From Planctomycetota bacterium (GTDB lineage Bacteria; Planctomycetota; UBA1135; UBA2386), in the NCBI GenBank assembly GCA_046290465.1, contig JBKAGP010000001.1, positions 1,184,001-1,248,000 on the forward strand: DNA of 64,000 nucleotides. The letters run 5' to 3'. Under the pieces are notes generated by a model. It ran no database searches and was not told the origin of the DNA. It saw only the letters and a program-made list of their open reading frames with translations. Made by a program: the position numbers and the translations under genes. Shown here piece after piece: positions 15,006-24,480 of the stretch; position 1 is the first letter of the stretch; each line of letters opens with the position of its first letter.

Positions 15006-15602
15006 ATGAAGGACGAGGACGGAGTCGGCAACGACACCGCGGCGATCGATGTCGCCCTGAAGCGACTGCAGGCAGGCGACAAGACCGCCTGGCAGGAGCT
15101 GATGCCGCTCGTCTACGGCGAACTGCACTCGATCGCGCGCCGCGAGATGTCGAAGCAGGCCGCCACCCATACGCTGCAGGCGACCGCGCTCGTCAACGAG
15201 GCGTTCGTCAAGCTCTGCCGCGGCAGCAGCATGCCGTCGTCGCAGCACAACGAGTTCCTCGGCCTTGCGGCGACCGCGATGCGCAGCATCCTGACCGACC
15301 ACGCACGCGCCAAGAACTGCGCCAAGCGCAGTGCGCCAGGCGGGCACGTGGTGCTCAGCGATGCACTGGAGCTCGTGATCGACGAGCAGTGGAGCCGTTC
15401 GCCGATGACCGTACTCGAACTCAACGACCTGCTCGACAAGCTCGCCGAGATGGACCCGCAGGGCGCCAAGATGGTCGAGCTGCGGTACTTCGCGGGCCGC
15501 ACCGTCGAGGAAGCCGCCGCCGCCGTCGGCATCAGCGTCCGCACGTCGCAACGACACTGGCGAGCGGTCGCCGCCTGGATGAAGCGCGAACTCGAGAAGT
15601 GA
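15006..15602 (+). CDS. ECF sigma factor (TIGR02999-like, kinase-associated)
   Basis: LVYGELHSIA, HTLQATALVNEAF, MRSILTDHAR, VELRYFAG; stop overlaps the kinase start. Confidence 0.92.
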   Translation: MKDEDGVGNDTAAIDVALKRLQAGDKTAWQELMPLVYGELHSIARREMSKQAATHTLQATALVNEAFVKLCRGSSMPSSQHNEFLGLAATAMRSILTDHARAKNCAKRSAPGGHVVLSDALELVIDEQWSRSPMTVLELNDLLDKLAEMDPQGAKMVELRYFAGRTVEEAAAAVGISVRTSQRHWRAVAAWMKRELEK

Positions 15603-18124
15603 CTCCCGATAGCTGGAAGCGCGTGCTGGCCATCCATGCGGATGCGCTCGATCTGCCGGAGGCAGACCGGGAGGCGTTCGTGCGCAACGCGGCCAAAGGC
15701 GACGACGAGATCTTCGCCGAGGTGATGTCGCTGCTCGCGGTCGATCTCGGCGAGCACGACATGGAACCGCCCGGGGCGTCGGCGACCGCCGAGGCCGCGC
15801 CCGACGGCACACCCGGCGAACGGCGCCTCGGCCCCTACCTGCTCGGCGGTACGCTGGGACACGGCGCGACCGGCACGGTCTTCCGCGCGCTCGACACGCA
15901 GCTGCAGCGGGACGTCGCGGTCAAGGTGCTGGAGACCGGCCTGACGACGACACCGAGCCAGGTCGCGCGGTTCCGTTCGGAGCCGCGCAGGATCGCGAGG
16001 CTGCGACACAAGAACATCGTCAAGATCCACGCCAGCGGCCACGAAGGCACGACCAGCTGGTTTGCGATGGAGCTGATCGACGGGCACGACTTGTCGAAGG
16101 AGCTCGACCTGCAGCGCAACCGTTCGCACGCGGCGCTCCTGCCGGCGCCAGGTGAGTCGGGGCACGTGCGCAGAGCCGCGCAGCTGTGCGCCGAGGTAGC
16201 CGACGCGCTGCAGGCCGCCCACGATGCCGGGATCGTGCACCGCGACGTCAAGCCGCAGAACCTGCTGCTCGACGCAGGAGGAGAGGTTCACCTCGTCGAC
16301 TTCGGCCTGGCACGGGACGAACGCTACGGCGGAGCATCGCTGACGCAGAGCGGCGCGGTGCTCGGCACCGTGCACTACATGAGCCCGGAGCAGACCCAGG
16401 CAGCGCGGGCCAAGGTCGACGCGCGCACCGATGTGTATTCGCTCGGGGTCGTGCTCTACGAGATGCTGACCTTGACCAAGCCGTTCGATGGCGGGTCCAT
16501 GGAAGAGGTCTGGCAGTGCATCCGCACGGCAGAACCGAAGGCCGTGCGCAAGCTGCGGGCATCGGTGCCGAGGGACCTGGAACTGATCGTCAACCAGGCG
16601 ATGGCGCGTGATCCGCAGGATCGCTACGCGACGGCAAAGGCGTTGGCGGAGGACCTGCGACGGTTTCTGGCGTTCGAGAGCATCGAGGCGAAGGCCCCGA
16701 CGATCGGGCAGCGTGTGCGGCGGTTCGTGGTTCGGAACCGTCGCTTGTTGGCGGCCGCGCTGGGTGCGGTCTTGTTTGCAACGATTGGGTGGTCGTGGTC
16801 GTCTCTGCAGGCGCGCGAGGCGCGCCTCGGCGGCGTTGCGAACGAGACGCAGGGGCTGCTCGAGGCCCTCGCCGACGCATCCGACGCCGAGCTGCTGCGG
16901 CTGCAGCAGCACGTGAAGACGCTCAGGAACTCGAGCGAGCAACCCCACTTGCTGCTCGCCAAGAGCGCGGCGACCCAGCTCGCGACGCTCGAGGCCAGGT
17001 GGACTAGGACGGCCGACGAATGGACTCGGGCGGGGCGCGAAGCGGGAGACGACTCCCTCCTCTCGCAAGCCAAGATCCTGCGCTATCGCCTCGCGCTGAT
17101 CTTCGAGGGCAATCCGGAACACCTCGCCGCGCTGTCGGAGAACGACTTCGCACCGAGGCTCACGGTGGACCTGCGCGATCGTGAGGACGGCCCCCTACGA
17201 GGCGCCGTCAGCCTCCGCGAGATCGACCCGGTCACGGGACAACCGACATCGAGCATCCCGATCGGCGACCTGCCGATTCGAAACCACGAGGCGCCGATAG
17301 GCCTGTACCGCATCTCCGTACAAACCGGCCCCTACGGTCTGCGCGAGTTCACCAGACGCCTGCGGCGGGGCGAGAGCACCGTCATCAACTATCGACTGTC
17401 CCGGACCCCCGAAGAAGTCGCCGACCAACTCGTGCCGATTGCGAGGGGAACGCTCGAGCTCCGTGACGCCAACGCAGGACTGTCCGGCATCAACAACCGG
17501 AGCGTGGATGTGGAGGCCTTCGAGATCCTGCGGACCGAAGTGTCGAATGCGATGTATCGCGAGTTCCTCGAGCTACACCCCAAACACAAGAAGCCCTATC
17601 ACTGGGATCAGGTCCCGGCGGGCTCGGCACGCGACCAGCTCCCGGTTGTGTTCGTCAGCTGGTACGACGCTCGGGACTACGCCGAGTGGTCGGGCCTTCG
17701 TCTGCTGACCCACGCAGAATGGATGCTCGCGGCCCGCACGACCAAAGGCCATCGCTTCCCATGGGGCGACAAAGAACCGTGGCGAGGCAACGTGAACGTC
17801 GAGTTCTCGTTCGCCCCCAGCCCAGCCAAACAGGCCGAGCTCTACTTCCGCCATGCGAGGCCGGTGACAAGCGATCCAGACGCGAACACGCGCAACGGAC
17901 TGTTCCACATGCTCGGCAACGTGTGGGAGTGGAGCGAGAGCGCGCAGCCCGCGATCCGTTCGGGCACCCTGGTACCGGCTCTGCACGACCGCGTCATCCT
18001 GGGTGGCGGCTGGCATTCCCAGCGCGAACCGCGCGACCTGCGCACGGCGCTGATGAAGGCGCTGCCCGACCAGAGCAGCGCCATCTACAACCGCGGCTTC
18101 CGATGCGGAAGAAGCACCCCGTAA
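15599..18124 (+). CDS. Ser/Thr protein kinase with TM helix and C-terminal FGE-sulfatase (SUMF1)-like domain
   Basis: GTG at 15599; LGHGATGTV, VAVKVL, HRDVKPQN, DFGLA, GTVHYMSPEQ, DVYSLG; TEVSNAMY, PVVFVSWYDA, NGLFHMLGNVWEW, GFRC. Confidence 0.92.
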   Translation: MTPDSWKRVLAIHADALDLPEADREAFVRNAAKGDDEIFAEVMSLLAVDLGEHDMEPPGASATAEAAPDGTPGERRLGPYLLGGTLGHGATGTVFRALDTQLQRDVAVKVLETGLTTTPSQVARFRSEPRRIARLRHKNIVKIHASGHEGTTSWFAMELIDGHDLSKELDLQRNRSHAALLPAPGESGHVRRAAQLCAEVADALQAAHDAGIVHRDVKPQNLLLDAGGEVHLVDFGLARDERYGGASLTQSGAVLGTVHYMSPEQTQAARAKVDARTDVYSLGVVLYEMLTLTKPFDGGSMEEVWQCIRTAEPKAVRKLRASVPRDLELIVNQAMARDPQDRYATAKALAEDLRRFLAFESIEAKAPTIGQRVRRFVVRNRRLLAAALGAVLFATIGWSWSSLQAREARLGGVANETQGLLEALADASDAELLRLQQHVKTLRNSSEQPHLLLAKSAATQLATLEARWTRTADEWTRAGREAGDDSLLSQAKILRYRLALIFEGNPEHLAALSENDFAPRLTVDLRDREDGPLRGAVSLREIDPVTGQPTSSIPIGDLPIRNHEAPIGLYRISVQTGPYGLREFTRRLRRGESTVINYRLSRTPEEVADQLVPIARGTLELRDANAGLSGINNRSVDVEAFEILRTEVSNAMYREFLELHPKHKKPYHWDQVPAGSARDQLPVVFVSWYDARDYAEWSGLRLLTHAEWMLAARTTKGHRFPWGDKEPWRGNVNVEFSFAPSPAKQAELYFRHARPVTSDPDANTRNGLFHMLGNVWEWSESAQPAIRSGTLVPALHDRVILGGGWHSQREPRDLRTALMKALPDQSSAIYNRGFRCGRSTP

Positions 18125-18138
18125 TCCTCTCTCGCCTC

Positions 18139-19323
18139 ATGACAACTACCGACCCCCGCTGCCTCAAGGCCGCGTGCGACCGCGCCAACGCCTACTGGCT
18201 CGACCGCCGCCGCCCCCCCAACACCTACGGCGTTCGCATCGAGTTCGCCGCAACGGCCACGCGGATCATCTGGATCAAGCTGGCGACCGCTCCGTTCGAG
18301 CTAGGCAAGGAGAGCTCCTCAATCGGTAAGATCCATGAAGTCGCCCCCACGGAAGAGGGCTCCTATACGCGACTCGAGTTCGTCACGTGGGAGCAGGGTT
18401 CCGTCGGAGAGTCGGAGGACCCCACCGCGTTGACGATCGAATGGGACGGCGAACCACCGCACATCGTAAGCTTCGAGTGGATCGTCGACCCGCCCGATGG
18501 TGAGCCGATGCTGCCCACGCCCGTGACCGGCAAGCAGGTCTATGCGTGGCGACGACAGGTCATCGAGACCGTCAGCCGCAGCTGCGCCTCGAACTACCAC
18601 CCCGCCCAAACCGGGTTGAGGAAGCGGATGCTCTTCTTCCTCGAGTTCGACATGCGCACGCAGCCGGCTCTGCTCGACGACGACGCCGACAAGGAGGCGA
18701 TCACAGCGTTCAGAGATCGCCTCACGGGCCGAATGCGACACCGCCTGCGGCATGCGAGCAAGGGGCAGGACTTCGACACATACGGTTCGCGCGACCATGC
18801 CTGCTGGCCGCACGCGAAGCGGGTCAGCCGCATCATCTACGATCACTGGAAGGAGACCTTCCCAGACGATGGGCGCCTCCTAGCCCTGGACGACTGCTTC
18901 GAGTCCTTCGTATGCGGAGACCTCAGCATTGGGAAACACCCGTCCCGGCACAACATCCTCGACACCCACGGGGCACCCAACTCCTTCTTCTACCTGCACC
19001 TTGCTGAAGCCGCCCTCTTCCTGGCCCACTTCGAGTCCGAGCAAGAGGACGGAAGCAGCGAGCGAGCCGACTTCTGGACGAAGGCGTTGTCGACCTTCGT
19101 TCGTACGGCCGAAGTCTATGTGCAGCTGTACTGGAACGGAGGATGCCGGCGCACCAATGCGTATGGCTACCGCTGGCTCGGCAAGTCGGCCTTTACCCCC
19201 GATCAGCGGCGACGCCTACGTGAAGCGTACGGCCCCCGGACGGATCTTCAGCAACTGCGCCAGCACTTCAACACCATCCTGCTGACAGCACGCCGCGACG
19301 ACGTGCGCATCCTCTTCCCCTAA
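18139..19323 (+). CDS. Hypothetical protein (394 aa, atypical composition)
   Basis: Long ORF starting 14 bp after the kinase stop; lower GC than flanks; no recognisable motif. Confidence 0.6.
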   Translation: MTTTDPRCLKAACDRANAYWLDRRRPPNTYGVRIEFAATATRIIWIKLATAPFELGKESSSIGKIHEVAPTEEGSYTRLEFVTWEQGSVGESEDPTALTIEWDGEPPHIVSFEWIVDPPDGEPMLPTPVTGKQVYAWRRQVIETVSRSCASNYHPAQTGLRKRMLFFLEFDMRTQPALLDDDADKEAITAFRDRLTGRMRHRLRHASKGQDFDTYGSRDHACWPHAKRVSRIIYDHWKETFPDDGRLLALDDCFESFVCGDLSIGKHPSRHNILDTHGAPNSFFYLHLAEAALFLAHFESEQEDGSSERADFWTKALSTFVRTAEVYVQLYWNGGCRRTNAYGYRWLGKSAFTPDQRRRLREAYGPRTDLQQLRQHFNTILLTARRDDVRILFP

Positions 19324-19338
19324 CCCCAACCCAAGAAC

Positions 19339-19659
19339 ATGGACCAGAATCTGACTCTCTACACCTACTGCACAGACGACCACGGCAAGAGGCAGCCTCC
19401 TGGCGACCTAGCTACGGCCTTCGGCGAATGGGAAAAGCACATGACCGAGATCCCTGACGTCGACACCTGGCAGCTGCGCAACAAGGAGATCTGGAAGCTG
19501 ATCAACACGTTCACTACTTCCAATGCAACGATGGACAAGACGAAGTACGAGGAGTCGCGCCAAAGCGGCGACACGTGGGTCTACGGCAAGGACGGCGTCT
19601 ACGTGGAGTTCAAGAAGGGCGACACCGTCCGCTACTTCGGCGCACAAACAGCCGTCTGA
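19339..19659 (+). CDS. Hypothetical protein (106 aa)
   Basis: Protein-like composition; 15 bp after the previous stop; lower GC (30/60 G+C at 19501-19560). Confidence 0.65.
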   Translation: MDQNLTLYTYCTDDHGKRQPPGDLATAFGEWEKHMTEIPDVDTWQLRNKEIWKLINTFTTSNATMDKTKYEESRQSGDTWVYGKDGVYVEFKKGDTVRYFGAQTAV

Positions 19660-22705: not shown

Positions 22706-23686
22706 CTACCGACCCAGCTGCTTTTGTGCCTCGGCCGCGGCGTAGGTGCCTTCGTACTTGTCGGCGAACTTGCGCAGGCCTGCCATCAGCTTGCGACGCT
22801 GCGCGATCGAGCTCGGGTCGTACTTGGCCTGCAGCTTCTGCAGCGCCTTGCACGCGGCGATCTCCTTCTTGATGTTCGCGTCCTTGCTGAAGCGCTTGAG
22901 CTCGGCTTCGGCATCGTCGGCGGCGGGGAAGCCCTTCCACTCCTTCTTGATGCGATCGAGGGTCTCGCGCGCACGCAGGTAGTCGGGACCGTCGGCGAGC
23001 TTCTTGACGCGCGCGCGCTGCTTCTCGGCCCGCTTCTGCAGCTCCTGCTGCTGGGCCGCGAACACGTCGCGCATCTCCGCGTCGAGCTTCTCCGCCTGCA
23101 GCATCTTGGCCAGGTAGGCCTCGAGCCGGCGGTAGTCGCCCTTCTCCCACATCTTGCGGATGGGGTCGTAGCGCGAGTCCTCGGGCATCTTCGGCGCCAG
23201 CGACACGTTCTCGAGCAGCTGCTCGATGGTCGCCTCGCTCGGCATGCGGTCGTCGGGCACCGAGTGCACGGTGCCGTCGGGCGCGATGCAGTAGACGCTC
23301 GGGTAGAACTTGATGCCGTACTTCTGGGTGTCGGACGCCTTGATCTTGGCCATCGGGTACTTCGCCCCGAGACCGTCGATGAAGGTCTTCTCGATCTTGT
23401 CCTCTTGCTCATCGGACACGCCGATGACCAGCAGCCCCCGCTCCGCGAACTTCTCGTGCAGTTCGTTGAGGTGCGGGACGGCCGCCTTGCAGGGGCCTCA
23501 CCAGGTGGCGCCGAAGTCCAGGATGACGACCTTGCCCTCGAGTTCGTCGAAGGACTCGGGGCCGTCGTTCCAGACCTTGACGAACTCGATCGGCGGCGGC
23601 GTCGAGCCCTTCTGCTGCGCGGCGAGGGTGCCGGCGGAGAGGAGCGCGAGCCCCGCCACGAATGCGCGTGACGTGCTGCGGTTCAT
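22706..23686 (-). CDS. Exported TlpA/redoxin-like selenoprotein candidate (UxxC; Sec63) with C-terminal helical domain
   Basis: ORFs 23498..23953 and 22706..23419 are in one frame, joined through TGA at 23500-23498: GKVVILDFGATW-U-GPCKAAVPHLNELHEKFAERGLLVIGVS; cis-Pro-like FYPS; signal peptide; 326 aa. Confidence 0.88.
23467..23500 (-). promoter_or_regulatory. Candidate bacterial SECIS (TlpA-like gene)
   Basis: UGAGG pairs with CCUCA; apical GCGG/CCGC stem with a G-containing loop. Short and GC-rich, so the support is weak. Confidence 0.4.
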
Positions 23687-23748
23687 GGCGAGCATGCTAG
23701 CAGAGCGGGCCGGCGGCGCTGCATGCAAGCGCGATCGGTACAGGCAAA

Positions 23749-23787
23749 CGACCACCGCCGACGCTGGACGAGCGTCGACGGTGGTCG
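23749..23787 (-). terminator. 17-bp hairpin followed by UUU, downstream of the peroxiredoxin gene
   Basis: CGACCACCGTCGACGCT-cgtcc-AGCGTCGGCGGTGGTCG-ttt on the minus strand (one G-U pair). Confidence 0.55.
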
Positions 23788-23874
23788 CCATGGCAACGGG
23801 CCGGTGCCGATGCCCGCCGGGGCCGATGCACCTGCGGGTGCACCTGGGCGGGCCGGGCCGCGCTCGTGCCGGCG

Positions 23875-24480
23875 CTACTTGTTGTGCGCCTGGTGCACGC
23901 GGCCGACCATCTCCGGTCCGGGGGTCAGCGTGGTGTCGCCGTCGTCCTTCCACTTGGAGGGACAGCCTTCGGCCGGCTTCTTGCCGAGGTAGATGTTCGC
24001 CTTGAACTTGCGCATCGTCTCATCGATGTTGCGGCCGAGGTTCAGGAAGTTGACCTCGCTGTTCATCAGCTTTCCTTCCGGAGAGATCAGGTAGGTTCCG
24101 CGCAGGCAGAAGCCGCCGTTCCAGACACCGAACTGCTTGGCGAGATCACCGTTGCGGTCCGAGCCCATGTGGAACTTGACGGCTTCGAGATCCTTCTCCT
24201 CACGCTGCCAGGCCAGGTGCACGAAGTGCGTGTCGGCGCTGACGGTGACGATCTCACAGCCCATCTTCGCGAAGCGTTCTTGCTGCTCTGCCAGAGCAGC
24301 GAATTCAGTGCTTCAAACGAAGGTGTAGTCGGCCGGGTAGAAGAACAGCATCGTCCACTTGCCGTTCTTCATCGCTTCGCTGAGCTTGTACTCGCCGAAG
24401 CCGAGCTCGGTGGGTTCGTAGGTGGTGAGGGTGAAATCGGGGACCGTATCCCCGACCTGAAGAATGGAGTTCTCGGTCAT
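23875..24480 (-). CDS. ahpC: AhpC/Prx1-type peroxiredoxin, selenocysteine-containing candidate (Sec56)
   Basis: ORFs 24313..24867 and 23875..24264 are in one frame, joined through TGA at 24315-24313: FFYPADYTFV-U-STEFAALAE; VSADTHFVHLAW, RGTYLISPEG, GRNIDE, resolving EGCPSKW; AAGGA RBS; 201 aa. Confidence 0.92.
24277..24303 (-). promoter_or_regulatory. Bacterial SECIS-like hairpin in the peroxiredoxin mRNA
   Basis: 12 nt after UGA: GCUGCUCU-ggc-AGAGCAGC (8-bp perfect stem), extendable by UUC/GAA; built from A/U-ending codons unusual for this genome. Confidence 0.75.

Follow-up and report, generated by a model that had tools for sequence, protein, structure and literature searches.

Two neighbouring minus-strand genes of a planctomycete genome, encoding an AhpC-type peroxiredoxin (gene A) and a TlpA/ResA-type protein with a predicted export signal (gene B), are, in our judgement, likely to be real selenoprotein genes served by the standard SelA/B/C/D system, and to be independently controlled neighbours that form no dedicated redox couple. 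Both lie within the window, the whole stretch of 64,000 nucleotides that was analysed (contig JBKAGP010000001.1, positions 1,184,001 to 1,248,000). A preliminary description of this DNA had placed a TGA on the redox-active Cys of each gene, and re-reading of the frames agrees: four minus-strand ORF fragments become two intact genes once TGA is read through, and the Pfam AhpC-TSA match extends across the TGA on both sides in gene A and gene B alike. The two genes are on the same strand with 188 nt between them. The features of the locus, in window coordinates, are as follows.

23875..24480, minus strand: gene A, an AhpC/Prx1-type typical 2-Cys peroxiredoxin of 201 aa with predicted peroxidatic Sec56 and a resolving Cys in G-C-P-S-K-W (ATG at 24480; TAG stop at 23877-23875).
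24313..24315, minus strand: predicted Sec codon (TGA) of gene A, codon 56, in YPADYTFV-U-STEF; kept in 17 relatives.
24282..24300, minus strand: bSECIS of gene A, with an 8-bp stem and a 3-nt loop with G first, the loop beginning 20 nt after the UGA.
23744..23787, minus strand: terminator-like hairpin of 17 bp, followed by a short run of T, in the spacer between genes A and B.
23694..23702, minus strand: extended -10-like box, the putative leaderless promoter of gene B, 7 nt before the ATG at 23686.
22706..23686, minus strand: gene B, a TlpA/ResA-fold thiol-disulfide oxidoreductase of 326 aa, predicted to be exported, with W-U63-G-P-C66 (best start ATG at 23686; TAG stop at 22708-22706).
23498..23500, minus strand: predicted Sec codon (TGA) of gene B, codon 63, in DFGATW-U-GPC; TGA in 26 of the 28 matches covering the site.
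23473..23485, minus strand: weak, non-canonical SECIS candidate of gene B, with a 4-bp stem and a 5-nt loop.

A start of gene B at 23695 was set aside in favour of the ATG at 23686. Contigs from three other runs (X2, X6 and X15) span both TGA codons and show them unchanged, neither being read as TGC or TGT, and so the TGAs are not sequencing errors; a fourth run (X16) covers only parts of the locus. Misannotation by standard gene callers had been anticipated, and the database entries for both genes are indeed fragments. The closest database relatives of gene A (87-94% identity, 10 among the 120 matches listed) are pieces of 128-129 aa without the active site, and 116 of the 120 matches listed for gene B are pieces of 208-267 aa, of which the three inspected begin after the TGA.

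Gene A aligns with the E. coli and Salmonella AhpC chains (PDB 1yep, 4o5r) across both catalytic motifs (E about 1e-37), and combines PxxxTxx[C/U] with a C-terminal xCPxxW resolving motif, as typical 2-Cys peroxiredoxins do. It departs from these enzymes in that Sec would replace the peroxidatic Cys and in that its host genome has no AhpF partner, no gene scoring over the AhpF cut-off. In solved structures of AhpC and of ResA-type proteins, the catalytic Cys occupies the position that corresponds to the TGA of gene A and of gene B, respectively. For gene A, 13 of 14 genomes of the same genus retain the codon, as do G015, G017, G036 and G060; the other relatives have Cys. Both genes are of catalogued selenoprotein kinds. 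The counterpart of gene A is the Sec-peroxiredoxin (Prx, PF00578, TxxU; PrxU, NF040737), which likewise has Sec at the peroxidatic position of PxxxTxxU, a Prx1/AhpC fold and a SECIS within the ORF, and which Table 1 of a 2026 catalogue (PMC13188914) lists as experimentally verified through the Eubacterium acidaminophilum enzyme. Gene A nevertheless scores below the equivalog models for PrxU (NF040737; 158.6 bits, cut-off 270) and AhpC (TIGR03137; 161.8 bits, cut-off 272), and represents a separate subfamily, with U-[SA]-T-E-F in place of C-P-T-E-L, with Cys and Sec forms interleaved on the tree and, in distinction to PrxU, with a host that encodes heme-copper oxidases.

The SECIS of gene A falls within the canonical bSECIS range (16-37 nt after the UGA) and covaries with the TGA. 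After removal of duplicates, 33 of 34 distinct TGA-containing ahpC genes pass our hairpin test, against 0 of 66 Cys-ahpC genes, although the rows are kin and the counts are not independent trials. The one TGA-ahpC that fails has a single stem mismatch, and G003, which the search pattern missed, visibly has the same hairpin. The loop is only ever GGC, GUC or GGU, even where this costs a change of amino acid, and agrees with the G[G/U] consensus quoted in PMC13188914, while the stem is built from GCT, GCA and CAA codons, each of which makes up 2-5% of the codons for its own amino acid genome-wide. Gene A offers an unusually clean natural test of SECIS function: within one family, an 8-bp hairpin is found in the Sec forms and is absent in the Cys forms.

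The product of gene A has no signal peptide and would be cytoplasmic. Following the catalytic mechanism of 2-Cys peroxiredoxins, its Sec56 would attack H2O2 or ROOH and then form a selenenylsulfide with the resolving Cys of the partner subunit. Since no AhpF is encoded, thioredoxin and thioredoxin reductase are the likeliest recyclers; the genome encodes a TrxR-like protein and three thioredoxins of the Cys type.

Gene B yields an AlphaFold model (pLDDT 88, alignment of 27 sequences) with a disordered stretch of 24 residues at the N-terminus, a thioredoxin domain and an all-helical C-terminal domain of ~160 aa. The thioredoxin domain matches the ResA, DsbE and DipZ folds in a structure search and, with W-[C/U]-x-x-C on a TlpA-type fold, groups the protein with the TlpA/ResA/DsbE-like oxidoreductases. 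Inspection and low pLDDT suggest a signal peptide at residues ~1-23, cleavable by appearance. The TlpA/ResA UxxC selenoproteins share this fold, the U-x-x-C motif and the export signal; gene B differs from them in its additional ~160-aa helical domain, weakly similar to the C-terminus of NF041382. That model (VPGUxxT type 1) matches only the tail, at 37.6 bits for a cut-off of 350, and no NCBIfam model reaches its cut-off on gene B. The tail has no Pfam match; its structure search returned generic helical matches alone (best Z 8.1 over 63 residues), so that no fold was assigned, and its Atlas neighbours are TPR/YfiO-like, mostly under 0.9. By analogy with the DsbD/TlpA electron relays, Sec63 would be the nucleophile of the U-x-x-C motif, the protein would probably be re-reduced by a DsbD-type membrane protein, and the helical tail would probably serve as a partner-binding arm. 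A DsbD-like gene with a TGA of its own is located elsewhere in the genome.

Among 29 matches to gene B, its own genome included, 26 have TGA at the site, one does not cover it and the remaining two lack both Cys and Sec there. P0138 is a full-length version with Cys. Paralogues that keep the helical tail and lack the Cys/Sec nucleophile were also observed (L061 in G009, L064 in G055, P0204 and P0238). The candidate hairpin after the UGA (-6.6 kcal/mol) has G at loop position 3 and the usual distance from the UGA, but satisfies neither our own hairpin test nor the canonical bSECIS model as given in PMC13188914. The codons of the SECIS region are well conserved, but no more so than codons further downstream. 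According to BSepDB, 87.4% of entries have a canonical SECIS and 12.6% have none (PMC13326102).

The genome, a single contig of 6.59 Mb (70% GC, 94% complete) whose relatives are Planctomycetota, as the preliminary description had thought probable, encodes the complete set of genes that had been proposed as a check on site-specific Sec recoding. SelA (453 bits; its gene adjoins selD), SelB (354 bits, model positions 1-578 of 581 covered) and SelD (352 bits, with an in-frame TGA of its own) all score above their cut-offs, and there is one tRNA-Sec (Rfam match, 72.8 bits), with the anticodon UCA, a long variable arm and 8 bp in its acceptor stem. These genes are widespread among its relatives: selA occurs in 60 and tRNA-Sec in 58 of 61 genomes sampled from the order, and selA is over its cut-off in 151 of 201 sampled Planctomycetota genomes (about three quarters). 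In both genes the in-frame UGA lines up with a catalytic Cys in homologues and is retained by relatives. On these grounds Sec is almost certainly inserted at the TGA of gene A and very probably at that of gene B.

Two other fates of the UGA codons were weighed. Insertion of Cys (or Trp) through a suppressor-type tRNA would be compatible with the Cys found at both sites in homologues and with the want of a canonical SECIS in gene B, but we consider it barely credible. A tRNA-Cys with a UCA anticodon had been named as the finding that would turn the case into Cys recoding; the tRNA-Cys has the anticodon GCA and the tRNA-Trp CCA, and the sole UCA tRNA at the default ARAGORN threshold is the tRNA-Sec (a lowered threshold gave 1613 mostly spurious matches, which were set aside). 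The covariation of the gene A SECIS with TGA speaks against such decoding too, as does general usage, 2676 of 4344 genes predicted with a dicodon model terminating at TGA. Both flanking genes, for a GT9 glycosyltransferase and an acyl-CoA dehydrogenase, also end in TGA, which is therefore an ordinary stop here, as had been claimed. For gene B it might alternatively be proposed that the TGA mostly terminates, the downstream part being made from an internal GTG, or that the protein level is very low. The weak hairpin, the invariance in 18 of 18 close orthologues of the GTG used by gene callers, and the two distant paralogues without Cys or Sec at the site lend this some colour. Yet in the structural model that GTG would fall in the middle of the thioredoxin fold, and upstream of it the signal peptide, the promoter box and U-x-x-C all persist even at about 30% identity. 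With a full-length Cys version known, and with more than a tenth of BSepDB entries sharing the absence of a canonical SECIS, this proposal for gene B is very improbable, and we retain Sec insertion in both genes.

The same preliminary description had seen in the pair a selenium-based peroxide defence cluster, a reading that the gene neighbourhood does not favour. Accepting both genes as selenoprotein genes, one may ask whether they constitute a co-regulated module in which gene B is a reductant or periplasmic arm for AhpC. Their common strand and short spacing, the thioredoxin folds of both products and the lack of AhpF all point that way, and the pair is adjacent in 12 of 23 informative family relatives, representing six genera (36 relatives were surveyed, 25 with an ahpC match: gene B beside ahpC in 12, apart in 11, at a contig edge in 2). 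But the genes belong to a larger synteny block, in the order acyl-CoA dehydrogenase (divergent), ahpC, gene B, GT9 and a small convergent ORF (lysozyme-like, labelled by eye), in which the unrelated acyl-CoA dehydrogenase and GT9 genes are at least as constant neighbours as gene B. Ten relatives keep ahpC at the locus without gene B, usually directly against GT9, and in G010 ahpC has been relocated beyond the acyl-CoA dehydrogenase gene. Nor is adjacency tied to the Sec state of ahpC, as pair-specific linkage in a two-gene redox operon would be: gene B is next to 7 of 14 Sec-ahpC and 5 of 9 Cys-ahpC genes, the 2 relatives at contig edges aside.

Regulation and location also separate the two genes. 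A TAnnnT box stands 5-8 nt ahead of the gene B ATG in 14 of 19 orthologues, and the same signature is found at 225 of 3063 gene-start ATGs but at only 12 of 24792 internal ATGs; from this we infer that the box is gene B's own leaderless promoter. It lies behind the 17-bp hairpin, and long spacer hairpins of differing sequence occur in 10 of 11 relatives, so that the two genes are probably transcribed separately. A scan for sigma-70 and terminator consensus sequences found no promoter and no terminator on the minus strand. Genome-wide, the presence of TAnnnT 6-7 nt upstream of ~7% of gene-start ATGs, 150-fold over internal ATGs, constitutes a leaderless-mRNA signature in this planctomycete. The predicted compartments differ as well, AhpC being cytoplasmic and the gene B product exported. 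Finally, in a genome with 36 or more Sec genes it is unremarkable to find two of them next to each other: when 35 were placed by chance among ~5000 genes, 21% of simulations produced one or more adjacent pairs. Sec genes do show mild clustering in this genome (8 intervals shorter than 12 kb, against 2.1 expected), which, together with adjacency over six genera, makes some selection for proximity possible. A co-regulated peroxide-defence module is on balance unlikely, and we regard genes A and B as neighbours in an old conserved gene block.

The Sec genes of this genome were sought by coding-potential, paralogue and motif scans, which gave 33 genes with 36 in-frame TGAs; three further genes with confirmed TGAs (genome position 148912 and two more) bring the minimum total to 36 genes and 40 codons, part of which was checked in relatives. 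The hairpin test is passed by 25 of the first 35 candidate sites; its pass rate was 10% among TGAs at the ends of genes and 11% among Cys codons. AhpC-TSA matches carry a TGA in 12 of 23 cases, one of these being a rejected site, while none of four molybdopterin-enzyme matches has an internal stop and no Sec formate dehydrogenase was found. There are two strong heme-copper oxidase subunit I genes. The top ten genomes in BSepDB hold 46-63 selenoprotein genes each, with no planctomycete among them (PMC13326102).

Several individual loci merit description. A candidate for an uncatalogued selenoprotein family (G000:C1:147922-149034, plus strand; L109, L244-L255) is an exported protein of ~370 aa with F-P-G-S-C-U-G near the C-terminus and no Pfam or NCBIfam match; its TGA (genome 148912) is present in 18 of 18 matches from four families, down to 33% identity, and the downstream stretch is conserved. 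A small lipoprotein-like protein (G000:C1:5453183-5453593, minus strand; L139) contains Y-N-I-E-G-U-F-L-C (UxxC) and has no family match. A VPGUxxT type 2 protein (NF041383, over cut-off; G000:C1:4806935-4808008, minus strand; L136) has a second in-frame TGA in an MsrA-like motif, and hence two Sec codons where the catalogued type lists one. A second FG-GAP repeat protein with W-U-C (G000:C1:5535454-5536632, minus strand; L140) has TGA in 15 of 15 matches. Two sites were rejected: genome 3688428 appears to be a pair of neighbouring genes, with a HAD hydrolase as the second, and at genome 4533750 the TGA is outside the active-site motif of a 5'-truncated Prx-like ORF, with no hairpin and no match in 40 relatives. 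In-frame TAGs were seen in otherwise intact genes at G000:C1 positions 691258, 1039314, 1654948, 2646048, 4771896 and 5433776, which include uvrA-like, cheA-like, response regulator and AhpD-like selenoprotein genes. None of 12 same-genus matches shares the TAG of uvrA, which only this assembly has, and the in-frame TAGs are therefore probably base errors of the assembly, or else private mutations; the AhpD-like frame is open in most relatives. Elsewhere in the window, at 15389-19659, there is a Ser/Thr-kinase-like protein that is much extended at its C-terminus; two hypothetical ORFs come after it.

The history of Sec in ahpC was approached with quick trees. In the first, the Sec ahpC cluster together (support 97), three Cys proteins from databases being nested among them, and a distinct group (support 99) is made up of nine Cys ahpC from the family itself. 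The second, run after the first had been seen, masked the active site and the ten SECIS-coded residues and added metagenomic Sec sequences; on it the Sec/Cys label needs 5 changes, 3 of them forced by strong branches, and a Sec-only clade was rejected in this post hoc analysis (AU p = 0.005). Since the same hairpin is common to all Sec forms of ahpC, one gain of Sec followed by reversions is the simplest reading, the alternative being transfer of a short segment carrying Sec and SECIS together. The nested proteins P0001, P0002 and P0003 are full-length Cys peroxiredoxins and, on their protein sequences, probable Sec-to-Cys reversions; in P0001 and P0003 the residues encoding the 3' arm of the hairpin are altered. 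Searching metagenomes with P0002 recovered no DNA for these nested proteins. In G015 (G015:C5:157553-158833; L025, L051) a Cys-ahpC and a Sec-ahpC of different clades stand in tandem directly upstream of gene B, possibly as a selenium-dependent isoform pair.

Sec machinery and a few selenoproteins have been described in other planctomycetes (PMC4807772). Our literature search found no paper on this locus or lineage, though the BSepDB family table and entries may include these genes, and the string 'planctomyc' is absent from the main text of two 2026 overviews (PMC13188914, PMC13326102). For peroxiredoxins, Table 1 of Zhang et al. 2006 (PMC1794560) gives five Cys-to-Sec and no Sec-to-Cys events, and a 2026 review describes Sec-to-Cys reversions as rare and mostly confined to FdhA and SelD, and selenoproteins as rarely kept by aerobes.

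The value of the locus lies in its corrected annotation, both proteins being stored at present without their active sites. The wider point reaches outside the window: selA is frequent in the phylum, and the Sec genes hidden in this genome number at least 36. We consider it an evenly balanced proposition that this AhpC lineage made a single gain of Sec with one fixed SECIS, underwent several reversions to Cys and now shares its locus with an older Cys paralogue, perhaps as a switch that follows the supply of selenium, all in an oxygen-respiring lineage whose selenoproteome would approach the largest recorded and would include several families absent from the 2026 catalogue. If true, this would contradict the 2026 review on two counts: its confinement of most reversion to FdhA and SelD, and its statement that selenoproteins are seldom retained in aerobes.
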